From an uncultured Candidatus Saccharibacteria bacterium (lineage in GTDB: Bacteria; Patescibacteriota; Minisyncoccia; Phycocordibacterales; UBA2100): 64,000 bases of DNA. Every line of letters starts with the position of its first letter. Position 1 is the first letter of the stretch. Where the stretch lies: positions 4,073-68,072 of the forward strand of contig CAYGKV010000001.1 in the NCBI GenBank assembly GCA_964350885.1. Direction: 5' to 3'. This document shows, piece after piece, positions 2,498-23,279 of the stretch. The notes below the pieces were generated by a model, which was not told where the DNA came from, did no database searches, and saw only the letters and a list, made by a program, of their open reading frames with translations. The translations under genes were made by a program, and so were the position numbers.

Positions 2498-2752
2498 CTA
2501 CCGATATGCATCCTTGCGATTCTTAATGGCGTACACGAAGATTGTCGAGGTTTCGATGTCAAAAAGTATGCGATAGTTTCCGACCCGCTTGCGGTACCCG
2601 TGCAGGGGAAGCTGTAATTTCTTTATTTGCCGGAGTTCAGACGAGAAATCCACAAGCTCGCGCAATGCCTCGCCCACCCGAATCTTTTCCTTCGGAGGTA
2701 AAGCATCAAAATTCTTCACGGCACTTCCAAACAAAACCACCTTATACACCAT
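2498..2752 (-). CDS. type II toxin, RelE/ParE family
   Basis: 85 aa from MVYKVVLFGSAVKNFDALP…GYRKRVGNYRILFDIETSTIFVYAIKNRKDAYR, matching the RelE/ParE signature (RVGdYRiiy…v.ilri.hRkdvY); starts 5 nt after antitoxin stop. Confidence 0.75.
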   Translation of the reverse strand: MVYKVVLFGSAVKNFDALPPKEKIRVGEALRELVDFSSELRQIKKLQLPLHGYRKRVGNYRILFDIETSTIFVYAIKNRKDAYR

Positions 2753-2984
2753 AACGCTTGAGGATCTTTTCAAGCGGAGTACCGCGTTCGCCCGCATGCT
2801 TCTTTTTGAGTCGCATGAGTTCGAGCGAGTCTTCAAGGTCCTCAAGGTCGCGCTGGTTCATGATGGTGGCGACGGGTATTCCACTTTTTTCGAGAGTGAT
2901 GCGCTCCCCGTTCATTACACGTTCAATAACCGCGCCGAGGTTAATGCGCGCTTGCGTAATGGCCATAACAGTGGTGTCGGACAT
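2742..2984 (-). CDS. type II antitoxin, Phd/YefM family
   Basis: 80 aa; ITQARINLGAVIERVMNGERITLEKSGIPVATIMNQRDLEDLEDSLEL resembles the Phd/YefM N-terminal fold; located upstream of the toxin. Confidence 0.7.
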   Translation of the reverse strand: MSDTTVMAITQARINLGAVIERVMNGERITLEKSGIPVATIMNQRDLEDLEDSLELMRLKKKHAGERGTPLEKILKRYGV

Positions 2985-3046
2985 ATATTGATTGATGTTA
3001 AGTACTACTCATCAACTATACTCAATGCATGCCCGCTGTCAATAAC

Positions 3047-3116
3047 GTTTTACACGCTGCTGCCGGCGACGAAGCCGCTGCTCCAGCAGAGCTGTAGCGA
3101 GTAGCCGCCGGAGGGG
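3047..3116. repeat. direct repeat copy 2 (covers last ~21 codons and stop of flavoprotein gene)
   Basis: gttttacacgctgctgccggcgacgaagccgctgctccagcagagctgtagcgagtagccgccggagggg. Confidence 0.65.
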
Positions 3117-4282
3117 CGGTTGATGTGTAGCACATCGCCGATGAGATAGAGGTTAGAGATTTTGAGACTACGCATAGTGCGCGTATCTACTTCCGTGAGC
3201 GGCACGCCGCCGTCGGAGACGATGGCGCGATCGAAGCCCATCAATCCTTCAATCGTCGCTGGAGCTGACTTAAGAAGGTGAACGAAGCGTTTGCGATCTT
3301 CTTTGGTGAGGCTATGGGCTTTGAGCGAAGGGTTTGGCAAGTTCAGTAGTGAGGTATACGCGCGACTCATGCCGGCCGGTACAATTTCGTCGACAACATT
3401 TTTGAAATCCTTATTCTTACTCGCTTCAATGGCGGCGAGGACGCGCTTTTCGAGCACAGCAAAATCGGTGTCGGGAAATGCGTCGATGGCGCAAGTGACG
3501 GTACCGCCCGATAGAAGATCGTGTACCTGATGAGCGCAGTTCAATATGAGAGGGCCGGAGAGCCCAAAGTGAGTAAAAAGGAGCCGCCCTTTTCTTGCAA
3601 ACGCTCGTTTGCCGTCGACGAAGAAAACAATCTTCATATCAGGCAACGTAATGCCAGCGAGTTTTTTTACCCATGCATCATCTACGCGAAGCGGGACAAG
3701 GGTCGGAGTCGATGGGATTACAGTGTGACCAAGGGCGGGGAGCCAATTGAATCCGTCGCCCGTCGAGCCCGTCTCGGGATGCGATGCGCCGCCTGTTGCG
3801 AGTACAAACGACTCAGCAGTAAACATCCCCTTAGTGCTCACGACATCAGTAATACGGCCGTCTGTAGCATTGAGTTTTTCCACAGTCACGCCCGTCAATA
3901 CCTCGACGCCATGCTCGGCAAGATAGGTCTTGAGCGTTTTGGTAACGTCGGTCGCTTTCTGTGTAACAGGGAATGCGCGGTTTCGTGCTTCGATGACGAG
4001 AGGCAATCCGCGTGAAGCGAAAAAATCAAAGGTGCTCTGCACGCCAAATTGGGAGAAAGGGGAGTAGAGAAATTGTTCTGCGGCGCCGTAATTTTTCAAG
4101 AGCGCACGCACATCTAATTCCGCGTTTGTGATATTGCACCTGCCTCCGCCGGTCGTATCGAGCTTTTTCCCAAGCTTTGCGTTTTTTTCGATAAGTAAGA
4201 CCGATTTACCGCGCTCGGCTGCTATACCCGCAGCAAACATGCCCGCGGCCCCGCCGCCGATCACAATGACATCGTACTTCAT
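3050..4282 (-). CDS. NAD(P)/FAD-dependent oxidoreductase, HI0933/BaiN-like flavoprotein
   Basis: MKYDVIVIGGGAAGMFAAGIAAERGKSVLLIEKNAKLGKKL…GGGRCN Rossmann dinucleotide fold; chosen start is the internal Met (ORF track extends to 4456). Confidence 0.8.
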   Translation of the reverse strand: MKYDVIVIGGGAAGMFAAGIAAERGKSVLLIEKNAKLGKKLDTTGGGRCNITNAELDVRALLKNYGAAEQFLYSPFSQFGVQSTFDFFASRGLPLVIEARNRAFPVTQKATDVTKTLKTYLAEHGVEVLTGVTVEKLNATDGRITDVVSTKGMFTAESFVLATGGASHPETGSTGDGFNWLPALGHTVIPSTPTLVPLRVDDAWVKKLAGITLPDMKIVFFVDGKRAFARKGRLLFTHFGLSGPLILNCAHQVHDLLSGGTVTCAIDAFPDTDFAVLEKRVLAAIEASKNKDFKNVVDEIVPAGMSRAYTSLLNLPNPSLKAHSLTKEDRKRFVHLLKSAPATIEGLMGFDRAIVSDGGVPLTEVDTRTMRSLKISNLYLIGDVLHINRPSGGYSLQLCWSSGFVAGSSV

Positions 4283-17518: not shown

Positions 17519-17685
17519 GTACAAGCGGTTACCAATCGTGGGACTTCGAGTTCTTCTGATTGAAAATGACCGTCGTGATATACAGTACATTCATGAACGT
17601 TTCGGCAAATAATCTTCATCATACTGGCCTTATCTCGAAGGTCGGTGTTTGCCATTCCTAATTTTCTCTCAATTGAATGTCAAAA

Positions 17686-17714
17686 GCGGGCCTTTGAGGC
17701 CCGCATTGCTTTCG
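17686..17714 (+). terminator. GC hairpin gcgggcctttgaggcccgc followed by T-rich tail
   Basis: read directly from sequence; lies between gnd and hisG. Confidence 0.35.
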
Positions 17715-17745
17715 TGTGAAGGCACTGGAACCTGATCTTTAGGAT

Positions 17746-18672
17746 ATGAAAATGAACGAACTTGCTCACGCGCATCCGACGCTGCTCGGTATCCCGGCGG
17801 GGAAAAGCCTGGAGACAGGAACGCTCGATATGTTGTCTCAGGCGCACATCACAGTGCGTCGGGGTCACGAACGGAGCTGCACGGCGAAGATCGAAGGCTT
17901 TCCCGGCATTCAGCAGGCGGTCTTCATCAAGCCGAGCCAGATCCCTGCCCTCGTCGCCGACGGGGCGGTGCCCATCGCTCTCACGGGCGAGGACACGGTC
18001 ATCGAAAGCGGCGCCGACGTGGAAACGTTGACGACGCGCTCGTTCAGCAAGGCGACGGCGGGCGGCACCCGGTGCGTGCTCTTCGCACGCGAAGGATTCG
18101 ACGCGGATATCCTCGAAGGAGGGCCTCAGCGCCAACGTGAGCGGTCGATCACCGTGATCTCCGAGTATCCGAAGGAGACGCGGTTGTTCCTGGAGAACCA
18201 CGGCGTGAATGCCGAGGTTGTCCCGTGCTCCGGTTCTGCAGAGGCGCTCGTGGTCATCAAGAAGTACGACTACGGGGTCGCGCTGACCGAGACGGGCACG
18301 AGCTTGCAGGTGAATCGGCTCAAAGAAGTCGAGACCATCTTCACGTCGAAGACGGTTCTCATCGCCAACAAAGCGGCGATGCAGAACGGGGTTATCCGCG
18401 AACGCGCTACGTTCCTTGCAAGCCTGCTTGCGGGTGTGCTTGAAGCCCGCGATAAAGTCTACATCACGATGAATGCGCGGATCAACAGTCTGGGGGCGAT
18501 CAAGAATATCCTTCCGTCGCTGAAGAGTCCGACTGTCCAGCAACTCGCTGAAGAAGGCTTCTGCGCCATCTCGTCAGTCGTTCCTGTAGAAGGACTGGTC
18601 GAGCTCAAATTCTGTCTCAAAGCACTTGGAGCGGAAGGCATAGTCGAGTTCAATCATTCTTCGATCGTCTGA
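17746..18672 (+). CDS. hisG: ATP phosphoribosyltransferase, long form with C-terminal regulatory domain
   Basis: Collinear with E. coli HisG: LLGIPAGKSLETG (RIAMQKSGRL), IPALVADGAVPIALTGEDTVIE, GSAEALVVIKKYDYGVALTETGTSLQVNRL, C-terminal regulatory domain; no other his genes in the window. Confidence 0.8.
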   Translation: MKMNELAHAHPTLLGIPAGKSLETGTLDMLSQAHITVRRGHERSCTAKIEGFPGIQQAVFIKPSQIPALVADGAVPIALTGEDTVIESGADVETLTTRSFSKATAGGTRCVLFAREGFDADILEGGPQRQRERSITVISEYPKETRLFLENHGVNAEVVPCSGSAEALVVIKKYDYGVALTETGTSLQVNRLKEVETIFTSKTVLIANKAAMQNGVIRERATFLASLLAGVLEARDKVYITMNARINSLGAIKNILPSLKSPTVQQLAEEGFCAISSVVPVEGLVELKFCLKALGAEGIVEFNHSSIV

Positions 18673-19479: not shown

Positions 19480-20949
19480 ATGGAACTACCCGGAGAGAAG
19501 TGCGCAGTATTTGGAGCCTACGGAAAAGGGCTCGATGTTGCGCGCCTCTCCTTCTTCGGCCTCTTCGCTCTTCAGCATCGCGGACAAGAATCTTCCGGTA
19601 TTGCGACCGCGGACGGCGATACGATTACCGTACACAAGGGGATGGGGCTCGTCTCGCAGGTTTTTAATGACGATCTTGTCGGGAGCCTAAAGGGGCACGT
19701 TGCCGTGGGGCACAATAGGTATTCAACGACTGGCGGCTCGAAAGTGAAGCATGCCCAGCCTATGCTCGCCGCAGGAGCCTCTTCTTTGCAAAAACTCTCA
19801 TACGAGGATCCGCACCCCAGCCTCAATGATTCGATATCGCTGTGTTCTGGTCCCGATGACGGAGCGATCGCGCTAGCGCACAACGGAAACCTCCCGATCA
19901 CAGACAAGCTTGCCGAATTTCTTAATTCCAAAGGTGTCGATTCCGCAGAATTTTCAGATTCGCGAATGATGGTGGAGGCGATTGCGGCGCGCATGCGCGA
20001 AGGAATTGATCTCCCCTCGGCTATCAAAGATGTGTACCCGCTTTTCACCGGAGCTTTCTCGCTACTCATCATGTCAAAAGATACTCTGATCGCGGTGCGA
20101 GATCATTGTGGTATCCGCCCGCTTGCGCTTGCGAAATTAAATGGCGGATACATTATCGCGTCGGAGACGTGTGCGTTTGCCCCCATCGGAGCTGAGTTTG
20201 AGAGAGAAATCAATCCGGGAGAAATGGTGATCATCGATGAGAAGGGAATGCGTGCCGAACAGATTGCGCCGCCTGACCCTAAGCTCGATATTTTCGAGTT
20301 CGTTTATTTCGCGCGTCCCGACAGTCAGATCCTGGGGAAGTCGGTATATGAGGTCCGCCGCAATTTTGGTGTTGAACTTGCCAAAGAGTATCCCGTCAAG
20401 GCCGATGTCGTCATTCCGGTGCCCGAGACTGCCATTGCGTCTGCCATTGGTTACGCGCAAACGCTCGGAATTCCTTTTGAGATGGGGTTAACGAAGAACC
20501 GTTACATCCATCGCACATTCATCACGCCAGAGCAGCATGTGCGCGAGCAGGGAGTAAAAGCCAAGCTCACGCCCATTATCGAGGTTGTCCGGGGGAAACG
20601 CGTTGTCGTTTTTGATGATTCTATTGTACGCGGGACGACCTCACAGCAGATCGTCAAAATGCTTTTTGATGCTGGAGCATTGGAGGTCCACTGTCTGGTC
20701 GCTTCGCCCCCAGTCAAATTCCCCGATTTTTACGGCATCGACACACCCAAGCAGTCCGATCTCATTGCGGCGACCAAATCTGTGGAGGAGATAGAAAAAT
20801 ATCTCGGGGCGACCTCGCTTCGCTACCTTTCATACGAAGGCATGATCCGTGCTACCGGCCTTTCTGAAAACCAATTCTGCACCTCCTGCTTCACCGGCGT
20901 GTACCCTATAGATATTGGAGAACGAGCGAAGGAAATAAAAAAAGTGTAA
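19480..20949 (+). CDS. purF: amidophosphoribosyltransferase
   Basis: N-terminal propeptide then Cys nucleophile (CAVFGAY), Ntn glutaminase domain, PRTase motif VVVFDDSIVRGTT; C-terminal Cys cluster. Confidence 0.9.
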   Translation: MELPGEKCAVFGAYGKGLDVARLSFFGLFALQHRGQESSGIATADGDTITVHKGMGLVSQVFNDDLVGSLKGHVAVGHNRYSTTGGSKVKHAQPMLAAGASSLQKLSYEDPHPSLNDSISLCSGPDDGAIALAHNGNLPITDKLAEFLNSKGVDSAEFSDSRMMVEAIAARMREGIDLPSAIKDVYPLFTGAFSLLIMSKDTLIAVRDHCGIRPLALAKLNGGYIIASETCAFAPIGAEFEREINPGEMVIIDEKGMRAEQIAPPDPKLDIFEFVYFARPDSQILGKSVYEVRRNFGVELAKEYPVKADVVIPVPETAIASAIGYAQTLGIPFEMGLTKNRYIHRTFITPEQHVREQGVKAKLTPIIEVVRGKRVVVFDDSIVRGTTSQQIVKMLFDAGALEVHCLVASPPVKFPDFYGIDTPKQSDLIAATKSVEEIEKYLGATSLRYLSYEGMIRATGLSENQFCTSCFTGVYPIDIGERAKEIKKV

Positions 20950-21068
20950 AAACTGTTAATGCGGTAAGTGTGGATAACTAGTTTTTTGCTTTAAAATACG
21001 GGGGAAAAGCACGAGTCCTAGTCGTAAAACGTGCCCGCCAGACACGCAGAAGATATACAATTAACGCT

Positions 21069-21272
21069 ATGAGTGATGAAGTAGTAGAGCCAACCAAATT
21101 TCGTGGCTTGAAGAAAGAGCACGCTGGAAAGTGGGTGGTTGCTGACAGCAAAACTGGAAAAATACTTCTTGCTGCCGATTCTCTTGCGGAATCTCTAAAA
21201 AAGACTGACTCGGTTAAGAGAAGAAGGGTCTTTAAAGCACTCGGTCAATTCTATGCTGGTGCCGCTCTCTAA
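21069..21272 (+). CDS. small hypothetical protein (GKWVV…DSKTGKIL motif), partner of downstream protease
   Basis: 67 aa; stop overlaps downstream start (TAATG); local GC ~45%. Confidence 0.4.
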   Translation: MSDEVVEPTKFRGLKKEHAGKWVVADSKTGKILLAADSLAESLKKTDSVKRRRVFKALGQFYAGAAL

Positions 21273-21715
21273 TGAGATTTAGGACCAAGGAAGTTGAGTC
21301 ACCCGATAACCCTTCGGAGTATCTGAAGACCCCTTGGGGCACGACAGTAAAAAGACCCGAAATTGATATCGAATTGTTGGATTCTGATGAAGATTCGTTA
21401 TTCGACCTTTCCGCAATCATAGATTCAGGAGCTGACATTACGATGGTTAACGCCGAGTACGCACTATCTTTGGGAGTATCTCTTCATAAAATACCAGATG
21501 TAGACGTTAAGGGTGTCACGGTAGTCGCAAAAGGAAAGCCCGCCATCATAAAGGTGCATCTCACCAAACTCGGTGATACGCTAGATTTACCGGTGCTTTT
21601 TATCGATAAACCAACCGTAAATATACTTTTAGGACGCGAGGTCTTTTTTCAAAGGTACAAAATTCGTTTCTGTATTTCTGAAGGTTTCTTCGAGATTAAG
21701 CGCATATCAGGGTGA
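21272..21715 (+). CDS. retropepsin-like (clan AA) aspartic protease
   Basis: SAIIDSGADITMVN – the D-S/T-G-A catalytic motif in typical retropepsin context, 147 aa single-lobe size. Confidence 0.55.
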   Translation: MRFRTKEVESPDNPSEYLKTPWGTTVKRPEIDIELLDSDEDSLFDLSAIIDSGADITMVNAEYALSLGVSLHKIPDVDVKGVTVVAKGKPAIIKVHLTKLGDTLDLPVLFIDKPTVNILLGREVFFQRYKIRFCISEGFFEIKRISG

Positions 21716-22028
21716 GAACAAATCCCTCTAAAGAAAGAATCTAAGAGGTCATTCTCGGGATGATGCCCTTTCCACAGGATATATCTCAGCGGTGCCCTCC
21801 TTCCTTGCTTTTTATGAACTCTGTCCCAAAGACGCATCGGTGGGTTGCTAGCTCTGTTTAAGTGCGGTTGTCCGTTTCAATCCCGTCTACTAAGGATCGC
21901 ACACCCGATTTTCAGCGCCTTCGCCGCATCTCAGCGGCAAGAGATGTTTGAGCTGGTGGCATATTGCCAGCGAATCGCGCATGAGTCAACGCGTGGACAG
22001 GAAGGTGGAATACGGGTAATCTGCTCGC

Positions 22029-23279
22029 ATGTCATTCAAACAACCGTATCTGCCAAGTGAGAAAATATTAAAAAATTACGCCGATGTGCTGGTGAATTTT
22101 GCACTTGGCGGCGGAAAGGGAATTAAGAAAGGGGAGGTCGTGCGTGTATCGGCGAGCGAATCAGCGAAGCCGCTGTACCTCGCTGTCTGTAATGCGATTA
22201 TTGATTCGGGAGGTCATGTGCTGTCCAATTATGGACCGGATGACGAAAAGGGCGACAAACGCCGGAATGAAAGCTTCACGCGCCATTTCTACGAACATGC
22301 TGAGCCACACCAGTTGAATTTTTTCCCGGCGAAGTACTTGAAGGGGATTGTTGAACAAATGGACCATTCGGTCTTTTTGCTTGCCGAGAAAGATCCTCAT
22401 GCGCTCCAGGGTGTTGACCCAAAGAAAATAATGCAGCGTGGCCTCGCACTCAAACCGTTTATGGATTGGCGGCATAAGAAAGAGTGGGCGGGCAAGTTTA
22501 CCTGGACGATAGCGCTCTATGGCACGCCCGCCATGGCTAAGGAAGCCGGTATTTCTGAGAAAGAATATTGGGATCAGATAATCAAGGCGTGTTTCCTGGA
22601 CGAGAAAAATCCGATAGCGAAGTGGAAGGCCGTGTATCGCGATATCGAGAAATACCGCAGTCGTCTCAACAAGCTCTCGCCGCATATCGATAGATTGCAC
22701 GCCGTGGGCCCCGACATGGACATGTGGTATACGCTTGGCGAAAGGCGCGCATGGCACGCGGGGAGTGGAAGGAATATTCCAAGTTTCGAGATATTTACCT
22801 CGCCCGATTGGCGTGGCACCAATGGTTGGATACGGATCAATCAGCCCCTCTATCGTTATTCCAACAAGATCACTGGCATCGAACTTGTGTTCAAAGATGG
22901 AGTTGTTGTAAAGAGCTGCGCTAAGACCAACGAAAAATTACTGAAAGAAATGATTGCTACAAAAGGAGCAAACAAAATCGGCGAGTATTCACTGACCGAC
23001 AAACGCCACTCTCGCATCACAAAATTCATGGCGGAGACGCTCTTCGATGAGAATATGGGAGGTCGTTATGGCAATTCCCACATCGCGCTCGGTATGAGCT
23101 ACCGCGATACGTACGCGGGCGACGTGTCCAAACTCACCGACAAAGAGGCAAAGCGCCTTGGCTTCAACGACTCATCAGTCCACACGGACGTCGTCTCGAC
23201 GACCGACCGCACCGTAACCGCGCATCTGAAAGATGGCACGACGAAGGTCATCTACAAGGATGGGATGTTTGTCTTGTAA
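22029..23279 (+). CDS. aminopeptidase, M29 (AmpS/aminopeptidase T) family
   Basis: TLFDENMGGRYGNSHIALGMSY and SSVHTDVVSTTDRTVTAHLKDGT align with the AmpT C-terminus; 416 aa. Confidence 0.75.
   Translation: MSFKQPYLPSEKILKNYADVLVNFALGGGKGIKKGEVVRVSASESAKPLYLAVCNAIIDSGGHVLSNYGPDDEKGDKRRNESFTRHFYEHAEPHQLNFFPAKYLKGIVEQMDHSVFLLAEKDPHALQGVDPKKIMQRGLALKPFMDWRHKKEWAGKFTWTIALYGTPAMAKEAGISEKEYWDQIIKACFLDEKNPIAKWKAVYRDIEKYRSRLNKLSPHIDRLHAVGPDMDMWYTLGERRAWHAGSGRNIPSFEIFTSPDWRGTNGWIRINQPLYRYSNKITGIELVFKDGVVVKSCAKTNEKLLKEMIATKGANKIGEYSLTDKRHSRITKFMAETLFDENMGGRYGNSHIALGMSYRDTYAGDVSKLTDKEAKRLGFNDSSVHTDVVSTTDRTVTAHLKDGTTKVIYKDGMFVL

Follow-up and report, generated by a model that had tools for sequence, protein, structure and literature searches.

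Single-domain retropepsin-like aspartic proteases are common in prokaryotes, and a role or a regulator is known for very few of them. The window analysed here, a stretch of 64,000 nucleotides from an uncultured Candidatus Saccharibacteria bacterium, codes for one such protease. Its gene overlaps an upstream gene for a very small protein. This raises two questions: do the two genes form a unit, and, if so, what does the small protein do for, or to, the protease?

The gene pair in the window

A first-pass annotation of the window, made from the sequence alone, had described a module of two translationally coupled genes. Both ORFs are present where it had placed them, and each begins with ATG. 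The pair and its immediate surroundings comprise the following features:

20950..21068, + strand: spacer of 119 nt between purF and the small gene, presumed promoter region (by inference)
21069..21272, + strand: gene for the small protein (67 aa, pI 9.9), a divergent DUF5678 partner on sequence comparison
21270..21274, + strand: TAATG stop/start (1-nt overlap, with the protease in the -1 frame)
21272..21715, + strand: gene for the retropepsin-like aspartic protease (147 aa, pI 5.2), assigned by PF13650 score and fold model
21716..22028, no strand: post-cassette stretch of 313 nt without a convincing gene, end of the low-GC module

The junction reads ctcTAATGaga. The final A of the stop codon of the small gene is also the A of the protease ATG, in agreement with the TAATG coupling that had been proposed. 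The local GC content, given earlier as about 45%, is 43-46% over positions 20600-21800 and roughly 50-56% on both sides. This dip fits an acquisition of the cassette from elsewhere. The flanking genes code for a PurF-like amidophosphoribosyltransferase and an M29 aminopeptidase, as had been noticed, and the pair was correctly taken to be unrelated to this purine and peptidase metabolism; the neighbourhoods of its relatives vary (see below).

The spacer on the purF side is presumed to be the promoter region of the cassette; a sigma-70-like promoter, a terminator and an inverted repeat were looked for in these 119 nt, and none was found. The stretch after the protease gene holds only short, unconserved ORFs and yielded no Rfam match and no terminator-like site. 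Around the cassette as a whole, flanking repeats, promoter- or terminator-like sites and Rfam elements are all absent.

The protease

The assignment of the 147-residue protein to the clan AA retropepsin-like proteases holds, both by its PF13650 match above threshold and by the retropepsin fold of its AlphaFold model. The PF13650 match covers residues 46-123 (27.7 bits against a cut-off of 24.3, E 4.5e-6). PF13975, the other Pfam family that had been suggested, stays below its threshold (21.6 bits, cut-off 28.2), and the matches to PF09668 and PF00077 are weaker than that to PF13650. The IIDSGAD motif is found at residues 49-55, and two hallmarks of the family can be located:

21422..21436, + strand: catalytic motif D51-S-G-A-D55, read from the sequence
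21632..21640, + strand: G121-R-E123, counterpart of the retroviral G-R-N/D, read from the sequence

DSGAD is invariant in five close relatives and is kept in 123 of the 124 distinct sequences of the protease family. The second hallmark, as part of LLGRE, is invariant among the close relatives, and we take G121-R-E123 to be the equivalent of G86-R87-N88 in the HIV-1 protease. The AlphaFold model (pLDDT 85.5, pTM 0.76) retrieves 28 PDB matches with Foldseek at E <= 1e-3, all of which are retropepsins or RVP domains of Ddi1. The top matches are APRc, M-PMV, HIV-1, EIAV and Ddi1, so the motif lies in a retropepsin fold and not in a different one. A search of solved structures by sequence gave only marginal matches, to Ddi1 and retroviral proteases. 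The protease is under selection, as indicated by the retention of DSGAD together with the retropepsin fold. Among the close relatives, translation of the protease begins at a conserved Met of its own, and in this clade an N-terminal extension of about 45 residues precedes the catalytic Asp. Retropepsins are obligate homodimers with a single active site between the subunits. By analogy, the window protease should be homodimeric as well.

Assignment of the small protein to DUF5678

The small protein has no direct match in Pfam (also at E <= 10), NCBIfam, PADLOC or PHROGs, and a word-indexed homology search returned only the protein itself. The idea that a DUF-type family might be recognised thus failed for the protein on its own and succeeded through its relatives, the route being the upstream neighbours of related proteases. 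Partners of relatives of the protease are clear members of DUF5678 (PF18929), with E-values from 1e-11 to 4e-19. Those of two close relatives score 23.0 and 22.9 bits, just under the curated threshold of 23.2 bits; the window protein also lies below this threshold and has no match even at E <= 10. When the window protein was compared with typical DUF5678 partners by hhalign, the probability was 91% (E 1e-6). The sequences align colinearly from end to end, and the hairpin, the helix, the strand and the tail follow one another in the same order. With the window subfamily included, a profile retrieved 590 proteins, and PF18929 was present on 120 of the 120 matches listed. Based on the scores of its relatives, the profile-profile match and the colinear alignment, the small protein is classified as a divergent DUF5678 member. 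Two of its elements are considered further:

21108..21218, + strand: DUF5678-like core, residues 14-50, aligned by hhalign, with a predicted beta-hairpin GKWVVADSKTGKILLA and a helix
21231..21269, + strand: C-terminal strand and tail FKALGQFYAGAAL-COOH, the proposed protease-contacting element

The typical DUF5678 partners agree with the window protein in size, gene order and coupling. The window subfamily differs from them by a two-residue insertion in the hairpin and by its tail, which is ...(I/F)YAGA(A/C)L as opposed to ...E-x-L-V-L. In the alignment, the tail of the window protein is the counterpart of the K-V-P-x-x-(D/E)-x-L-(I/V)-(L/F)-COOH tail that typical DUF5678 proteins carry. This consensus forms the exact C-terminus in 153 of 239 DUF5678 cases and lies at most 5 residues from the end in 227 of the 239. 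Y62 and G64 of the small protein are invariant within the close subfamily.

The AlphaFold model of the small protein has low confidence (pLDDT 56.8), with predicted strands at residues 22-26 and 32-36 and a helix at residues 39-48; the tail is poorly ordered in this monomer model. In this it resembles antitoxin tails that become folded on their toxin. The tail of the small protein may touch the protease. The small protein is basic and the protease acidic (pI 9.9 versus 5.2), and this is also true of the family medians (8.9 versus 6.1). No DNA-binding domain is recognisable in the low-confidence model, and no operator-like palindrome was found upstream of the small gene.

DUF5678 is a sizeable family of small archaeal and bacterial proteins, with about 1,760 clusters at 50% identity in a collection of 1.84 billion representative proteins. 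A sequence search returned no solved structure of a family member, and a search of the literature found nothing published on its function.

The pair is conserved across bacteria and archaea

The two families also occur together elsewhere: the partner is found upstream of the protease at every locus that could be tested. This applies to 50 of 50 testable loci in species-representative genomes from many bacterial and archaeal phyla, where a DUF5678-like gene lies directly upstream, and to all 77 testable protease matches in metagenomes (71 by HMM and 6 by inspection), which were scanned with the protease alignment as query. A protease without a partner was seen in 0 of 127 testable cases. The four close relatives of the window protease all have a homologous small ORF directly upstream. 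In total, the same pair occurs in the same order, with overlapping or near-touching ends, at more than 120 loci of other organisms, and this conservation excludes a chance pair of ORFs. The junction is TAATG or TGATG in three of the four close relatives, while a 4-nt ATGA overlap is found in 36 of 46 more distant pairs.

The reverse relation was sampled with seven DUF5678 genes, a small set drawn from proteins that resemble known paired partners. Five of them are followed by an intact protease gene, one by a remnant of only 33 residues, and one by no protease. A further copy of the cassette, beyond these seven, is frameshifted. Such an asymmetry (no intact protease beside 2 of 7 partners, a lone protease in 0 of 127 cases) is typical of toxin-antitoxin pairs. 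Tandem, multiple or divergent copies are found at three loci (L005, L079 and L134), and one Gemmatimonadota genome carries two copies.

No fused DUF5678-protease protein was encountered among 120 and 150 DUF5678 matches listed. One protein of 182 residues is a tandem double DUF5678. A fusion by programmed -1 frameshifting was also considered for the window pair; it was rejected for lack of a slippery heptamer and because the Met start of the protease is conserved.

The hosts are mainly uncultured bacteria (the Patescibacteria group, Omnitrophota, Nitrospirota and others). Among the archaea, the cassette is found in Methanoperedens, in Thermoplasmata and in DPANN-type lineages. Searches of sequenced plasmids, phages and IMG/VR returned no match to the cassette, these collections being poor in the lineages concerned. 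In Sulfolobales, small retropepsin-domain proteins have been reported beside type III CRISPR loci, which is a different context (PMC3973734). A literature search for the pairing of DUF5678 with a protease found nothing.

The genomic context of the pair is variable. The four close relatives reside in four different contexts. A third conserved gene was not detected: among 148 neighbouring genes with 150 Pfam families, each family occurs at no more than three loci. Across loci, the neighbours are mostly housekeeping genes, and defence genes are not enriched. Some copies adjoin a gene for ParE, an integrase, or a HicB-like or Imm5-like protein, and AAA_14/DUF4143 genes lie beside some copies.

Comparison with known systems

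The best Foldseek match of the window protease is APRc from Rickettsia conorii (PDB 5c9d, 5c9b and 5c9f; E 6e-5). Each has one retropepsin-type domain, which contains the D-S/T-G-A active-site loop and the G-R-x helix motif, but their sequence identity is only 16-19%. The window clade differs from APRc in its constant upstream partner gene and in its N-terminal extension. APRc is a membrane-anchored enzyme, and we know of no report of a DUF5678 partner for it.

The proteases from HIV-1, EIAV, M-PMV and HTLV-1 and the RVP domain of Ddi1 have the same fold (TM-score of up to 0.70 on the target) and share the D-(S/T)-G-A-D ... G-R-(N/D/E) signature. In contrast to the retroviral proteases, the window cassette encodes no polyprotein, and it lacks a frameshift site and retroelement genes. 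In Ddi1, the ubiquitin-like and UBA domains belong to the protease chain itself; the accessory protein of the window protease is encoded by a separate gene and is predicted to have a different fold.

NCBIfam has two models for archaeal and bacterial single-domain proteases of clan AA, TIGR03698 (clan_AA_DTGF) and TIGR02281 (clan_AA_DTGA). The scores for these models are 12-21 bits, far below the cut-offs of 57.35 and 57.95, so that the proteases described here belong to neither. Their motif is DSGAD as opposed to DTGF and DTGA.

PADLOC lists two candidate defence systems, PDC-M52 and PDC-M08, which consist of two genes each and have a retropepsin-like B component. Relatives of the window protease match PDC-M52B with E-values of 1.8e-8 and 3.5e-8 and PDC-M08B with 4e-6; the window protease itself matches PDC-M52B with 0.001. 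These scores are weak (13-32 bits), and the small partners match no model of either system. For these two reasons, the window cassette has an effector from the same superfamily but is not the same system.

Finally, the cassette resembles type II toxin-antitoxin modules. In both cases, a small upstream gene is co-directional with and overlaps a larger effector gene, and the two form an autonomous unit. This unit is patchy in its distribution, moves horizontally and occurs in several copies, and the small gene may be orphaned while the effector is never alone. The small protein is also predicted to have a disordered C-terminal tail. The differences are that the effector is an aspartic protease and that neither a DNA-binding fold nor an operator was detected for the small gene, both of which are usual in classical type II antitoxins. 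We know of no aspartic protease that is an established toxin.

Proposed function and alternatives

We tentatively propose, at slightly less than an even chance, that the two genes form a self-contained cassette and that the small DUF5678 protein controls the retropepsin-like protease, following the logic of a toxin-antitoxin or stress/defence module. The DUF5678 gene comes first, and the protease gene is translationally coupled to it. The protease would be catalytically competent and homodimeric, as other retropepsins are, and the small basic protein would bind the acidic protease in a complex and restrain it. The conserved strand and the hydrophobic C-terminal tail of the partner may fill the substrate cleft. 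Alternatively, they may insert into the terminal beta-sheet at the dimer interface. Loss or displacement of the partner would then activate the protease, which would be the effector of a type II toxin-antitoxin or a stress/defence module, and the cassette would be transferred between genomes as one unit. The data show the genes, the fold and the motifs, as well as the strict pairing, the variable context and the behaviour in copy number; that the two proteins bind each other, that the tail inhibits and that the protease is toxic at all are steps that we infer. The first-pass annotation had offered the small protein as an inhibitor, an in-trans propeptide or a substrate, in a toxin-antitoxin-like or processing cassette. 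The circumstantial evidence favours the toxin-antitoxin-like version of this hypothesis, given the autonomy of the cassette, its variable neighbourhoods, its multiple and tandem copies, the occurrence of orphan partners but never of an orphan protease, and the combination of a basic partner with an acidic protease. As counterpoints, the cassette was absent from plasmids, phages and IMG/VR, its neighbours are mostly housekeeping genes without enrichment for defence, and the partner matches no A component of the PADLOC candidates.

It is tempting to go further and to regard the DUF5678-protease pairs as a widespread new class of toxin-antitoxin or defence module, in which the C-terminal ...L-(I/V)-(L/F)-COOH tail mimics a substrate or a dimer-interface strand and holds the protease inactive. 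Synthetic interface peptides are known to block the dimerisation of HIV protease. In this full form, the idea is speculative and would probably not hold.

Strict co-occurrence and coupling suit an obligate heteromer equally well. Without the small protein, the protease might be unable to fold or dimerise. The partner would then be an obligatory positive cofactor, acting as in-trans propeptide, folding chaperone or assembly factor, and the two would make up a housekeeping or stress protease with cellular substrates, without any toxin logic. The prosegment of pepsinogen is basic, and the combination of a basic partner with an acidic protease recalls it; the mostly housekeeping neighbours and the absence from plasmids and phages are compatible with a cellular function. 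Against this, partners also exist without an intact protease, divergent tandem copies occur within one locus, the spread over bacteria and archaea is patchy, and the genomic position is not conserved even between close relatives. A housekeeping enzyme would not usually behave in this way, which weakens the cofactor explanation; we consider it rather unlikely. The small protein could also be a dedicated substrate or precursor, the tail of which is trimmed by the protease (for example after the conserved Y-A-G or at K-V-P) to yield a matured protein or peptide as the functional product. The tail is conserved and ends at the C-terminus, and the usual cleavage sites of retropepsins lie between hydrophobic residues or ahead of Pro; one close relative ends in ...YVGG, the others two to three residues beyond A-G. 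Yet conservation extends over the whole small protein, where a precursor would show a leader and a variable core; Gly-Gly is absent from the tails that are typical of the family, and genes for conjugation, export or modification do not recur nearby. A substrate role is thus improbable in our view.

An anti-phage function by abortive infection would assume that infection removes or titrates the partner, whereupon the protease, once free, would degrade proteins of the host or of the phage. The family has its weak matches to PDC-M52B and PDC-M08B, some copies lie next to ParE, HicB-like, Imm5-like, integrase or AAA_14/DUF4143 genes, and the cassette occurs in several copies and behaves like a mobile unit. 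However, the window protein reaches only 16.7 bits with the PADLOC models and its relatives no more than 32, the partner does not match the A components, most neighbours are housekeeping genes, and the PDC entries are themselves candidates for which we found no published test. We rate a dedicated defence function as quite improbable. A retroelement remnant, comparable to a gag-pro fragment, is suggested by the fold, by the DSGAD and GRE motifs and by the -1 frame of the protease relative to the upstream ORF. Nevertheless, reverse transcriptase, integrase and repeats are absent around the window pair and in the neighbourhoods of its relatives, no slippery heptamer precedes the stop codon of the small gene, and the protease starts from a Met of its own that is conserved. 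With the conservation at more than 120 prokaryotic loci, which excludes a chance pair, the retroelement and chance explanations are effectively refuted and retain a negligible probability.

Significance

PF13650 and DUF5678 are existing Pfam families, and we found no paper on their widespread pairing. One clade of retropepsin-like proteases thereby gains a constant, dedicated partner, and DUF5678, an orphan family, gains its first functional context. With 67 and 147 residues, the cassette is small and experimentally tractable. If the partner is an inhibitor, this would be the first protease-based toxin-antitoxin-like module that is built on an aspartic protease, and a natural case of retropepsin control by a short C-terminal peptide. 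A protease held by such a tail would, if true, be the natural counterpart of the synthetic interface peptides directed at HIV protease. An inhibitory partner would then also bear on the regulation of retroviral and Ddi1-type proteases and on the design of inhibitors.

The gene pair and its surroundings

The small gene and the protease gene form a conserved, autonomous and translationally coupled two-gene cassette. In the window, both genes are found exactly where the first-pass annotation had placed them. Together with the adjacent gap, the features are:

21069-21272, + strand, ORF of the small protein (partner), 67 aa
21272-21715, + strand, ORF of the protease, 147 aa
21716-22028, gap (313 nt) between the protease and the M29 peptidase gene; neither conserved ORF, Rfam match nor terminator-like site found

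The reported stop/start overlap is evident from the junction (ctcTAATGaga), where the final base of the stop codon doubles as the initial base of the start codon. According to the GC profile of the window, GC is 43-46% over the pair and roughly 50-56% on either side. Pfam assigns the flanking genes to a PurF-type amidotransferase, an M29 aminopeptidase, a GNAT-like protein and a histidine phosphatase. Neither flanking repeats nor a consensus promoter or terminator nor an Rfam element was found beside the pair. The only ORFs at the gap code for 62 aa (minus strand, 21649-21837) and for 71 aa (TTG start, 21845-22060), and neither resembles the sequence downstream of related cassettes. GC also deviates in the hisG region (ATP phosphoribosyltransferase, 17600-18600), being 57-64% compared with roughly 47-53% in the neighbouring genes, a shift in the opposite direction to that at the cassette.

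The protease

Retroviral retropepsins are characterized by two signature motifs, D-T/S-G-A-D and G-R-N/D. The 147-aa protein carries the IIDSGAD motif (D51-D55) already noted in the first-pass annotation and, further along, LLGRE (G121-E123); by sequence, these are both signature motifs. The suggested assignment to Pfam PF13650 (Asp_protease_2) holds, with 27.7 bits against a curated cut-off of 24.3. Matches to PF13975, PF09668 and PF00077 are weaker, and the protein falls outside NCBIfam TIGR03698 and TIGR02281 (12-21 bits, with cut-offs near 57).

An AlphaFold model computed from a five-sequence alignment is almost all beta (mean pLDDT 85.5, pTM 0.76). Its top Foldseek matches in the PDB are exclusively retropepsins (28 matches at E <= 1e-3), including APRc from Rickettsia conorii, the proteases of M-PMV, HIV-1, EIAV, FIV and HTLV-1, and the RVP domains of Ddi1. 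Therefore, the motif resides in a clan AA retropepsin fold, as proposed, and not in a different one. The active site is intact; DSGAD occurs in 123 of 124 distinct protease sequences, and the enzymes of this family are therefore very probably active. The protease is acidic (pI 5.2 in the window; family median 6.1).

The small partner is a divergent DUF5678 protein

The small protein from the window is not recognised by any model in Pfam, NCBIfam, PADLOC or PHROGs, and a homology search with it returned only itself. Its assignment was reached via the protease, which has four close relatives (44-55% identity). On all four contigs, a small ORF directly upstream of the protease gene codes for a homolog of the window protein (42-52% identity). 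The partners of this window subfamily have in common EHAGKWVV..SGK.L.A..TLAEALKK...KK.VFKV.P.IYAGA(A/C)L. The ORFs upstream of more distant protease relatives conform to ..Y.GkWVAIvdgKVvAhGkd.eevl.kAkkkyP.k.pfvAKVPxexxLVL and clearly belong to PF18929 (DUF5678; E 1e-11 to 4e-19). Against PF18929 (cut-off 23.2 bits), two of the window protein's close relatives reach 23.0 and 22.9 bits. When profiles of the window subfamily and of typical partners were compared, the probability was 91% (E 1e-6), and in a joint alignment the two are colinear from the hairpin through the C-terminal tail. On these grounds, we place the window protein in the DUF5678 family, as a divergent member that does not itself reach the Pfam threshold.

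DUF5678 is a small family (1,763 clusters at E <= 1e-3 in a set of 1.84 billion representatives), made up of stand-alone proteins of 56-120 aa. Their C-terminus is strikingly conserved: K-V-P-x-x-(D/E)-x-(L/M)-(I/V)-(L/F). The Pro is present in 219 of 239 sequences; the motif's end coincides with the last residue in 153 and lies within five residues of it in 227. The window subfamily and one related subfamily, the latter common in loci from the Patescibacteria group and from groundwater metagenomes, instead have ...P.(I/L).YA(G/P)... near the C-terminus. With a pI of 9.9 in the window (family median 8.9), the partner is basic.

Among the 150 best representatives, the only multi-domain architecture is a 182-aa protein with two tandem DUF5678 domains (P0227). 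Five DUF5678 proteins of 64-71 aa (P0021, P0064, P0112, P0050 and P0056) are clearly misnamed in public sources, as 'succinyl-CoA synthetase subunit alpha', 'disulfide oxidoreductase YuzD' or 'ABC-type hemin transport system ATPase subunit'.

Co-occurrence of partner and protease

A scan with the protease alignment, restricted to one genome per species, returned a further 51 relatives at greater distance (25-35% identity), from bacteria (the Patescibacteria group, Omnitrophota, Nitrospirota, Gemmatimonadota, Planctomycetota, Margulisiibacteriota), archaea (Methanoperedens, Thermoplasmata/Aciduliprofundum, Thermoproteota, Woesearchaeota) and other lineages within these domains. HMMs of partner and protease were run against six-frame translations of every locus. 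In 50 of the 51 loci, the gene immediately before the protease is the partner; the last locus has only 66 nt of contig upstream. An independent metagenome scan yielded 80 loci with 82 protease matches, 77 of which have testable upstream sequence. Of these, 71 are paired by HMM, and inspection reveals an obvious GkW(V/I)A... ORF upstream of the other six. Thus, the co-occurrence elsewhere that the first-pass annotation had called for is firmly established, in 50/50 genome loci and 77/77 metagenome cases with enough upstream sequence. A 4-nt ATGA overlap is present in 36 of 46 cleanly called pairs.

Seven DUF5678 proteins drawn from a profile search were analyzed from the partner side. An intact protease gene follows in five cases, a 33-residue remnant in one (locus L064) and no protease in one (L061). 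Orphan partners therefore occur, while an orphan protease was never found.

In L064 (4214-4363 and 5047-5359), only about the first 33 residues of the protease remain after the DUF5678 gene (E 9e-7), and the next uncalled stretch of 1.2 kb holds an archaeal SRP RNA (Rfam RF01857, 211 bits). In L061 (4001-8210; Aciduliprofundum boonei T469, DS990516.1), the orphan DUF5678 gene is followed by an unrelated 66-aa gene, in an island with genes for an AAA_14/DUF4143 ATPase, a ParE toxin and a phage-type integrase. One of the five intact cases is represented by two assemblies with the same DUF5678 protein; across L149 (2722-3122) and L150 (2722-3126), the protease is intact in one assembly and frameshifted in the other, either by pseudogenisation or by sequencing error.

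Genomic context and copy number

The context of the cassette is variable. The 148 nearest neighbours in the genome sample represent 150 Pfam families, none in more than three loci, and include ribosomal protein L2, EF-G, RuBisCO, MCM and glycosyltransferases. Each of the window pair's four close relatives lies in a different, unrelated context. No conserved third gene was found in the genome-sample loci or in the close subfamily, and no copy of the cassette in a plasmid collection, a phage collection or IMG/VR. Upstream of one close relative's cassette (L007, 641-1483), a gene codes for a 280-aa protein with a D...E-C-K pattern that, by eye, recalls PD-(D/E)xK nucleases.

Multiple copies occur. 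Locus L005 (identical to L067), a 2.6-kb contig, has two tandem cassettes (2-1662) on either side of an immunity-type gene:

79-525, first cassette, partner and protease
557-1018, Imm5_like gene
1037-1252, second, divergent partner
1237-1662, second protease, with DSGTD instead of DSGAD

In L079, two complete divergent cassettes (1057-1693 and 2744-3402) lie 1 kb apart directly downstream of EF-G (fusA), with an unrelated 250-aa gene between them. L134 has the cassette twice in inverted orientation (+ near 2986, - near 1381) with identical partner sequences; this could be a genuine inverted duplication or else a palindrome produced by the assembly. Two copies on separate contigs were found in one Gemmatimonadota genome.

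Possible function of the cassette

An effector that is never alone and a small gene that sometimes is: toxin-antitoxin pairs follow the same pattern. We infer that partner and protease bind each other and that the partner restrains the protease, probably through its strand and conserved tail. These would lie either in the substrate cleft or in the beta-sheet by which retropepsin dimers are joined, built from N- and C-terminal strands. Dimerisation of HIV-1 protease is reported to be blocked by peptides that mimic its C-terminal strand (T-L-N-F). The typical DUF5678 ending, T/A-L-(I/V)-(L/F)-COOH, looks similar, which we consider just a lead. Taken as a whole, the toxin-antitoxin-like reading is tentative, its likelihood being a little short of even.

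In the chief competing explanation, a cellular protease depends on the partner as its obligatory cofactor, propeptide or assembly factor. This would explain the strict pairing equally well, but accounts less well for orphan partners, tandem divergent copies and shifting positions. It is also possible that the partner is a substrate or precursor. A role in phage defence is possible too: relatives of the protease weakly match the retropepsin-like B components of two PADLOC candidate two-gene systems, PDC-M52 and PDC-M08, although none of the PADLOC models for these systems recognises the partners. Retroelement genes are absent around the pair in the window and from the neighbourhoods of relatives, there is no slippery site, and translation of the protease has a conserved start of its own; a retroelement remnant and programmed frameshifting are therefore excluded.

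Both protein families are already in Pfam, DUF5678 without an assigned function. A literature search on DUF5678 returned nothing on function, the sole mention found being unrelated. Nor did searches for retropepsin or aspartyl protease together with antitoxin, toxin-antitoxin or arCOG, or for the PADLOC candidates, return anything on the pair. Another prokaryotic context for stand-alone retropepsins is provided by type III CRISPR-Cas loci of Sulfolobales, where proteins of ~100 aa with a retropepsin domain (e.g., Saci_1895) are reported to be encoded by accessory genes (PMC3973734).

We class the pair as a two-gene module with toxin-antitoxin architecture, which joins a known protease family to a known, uncharacterised small-protein family. 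The window copy is part of a divergent subfamily whose partner escapes the Pfam model. The association between partner and protease is clean and easy to test.
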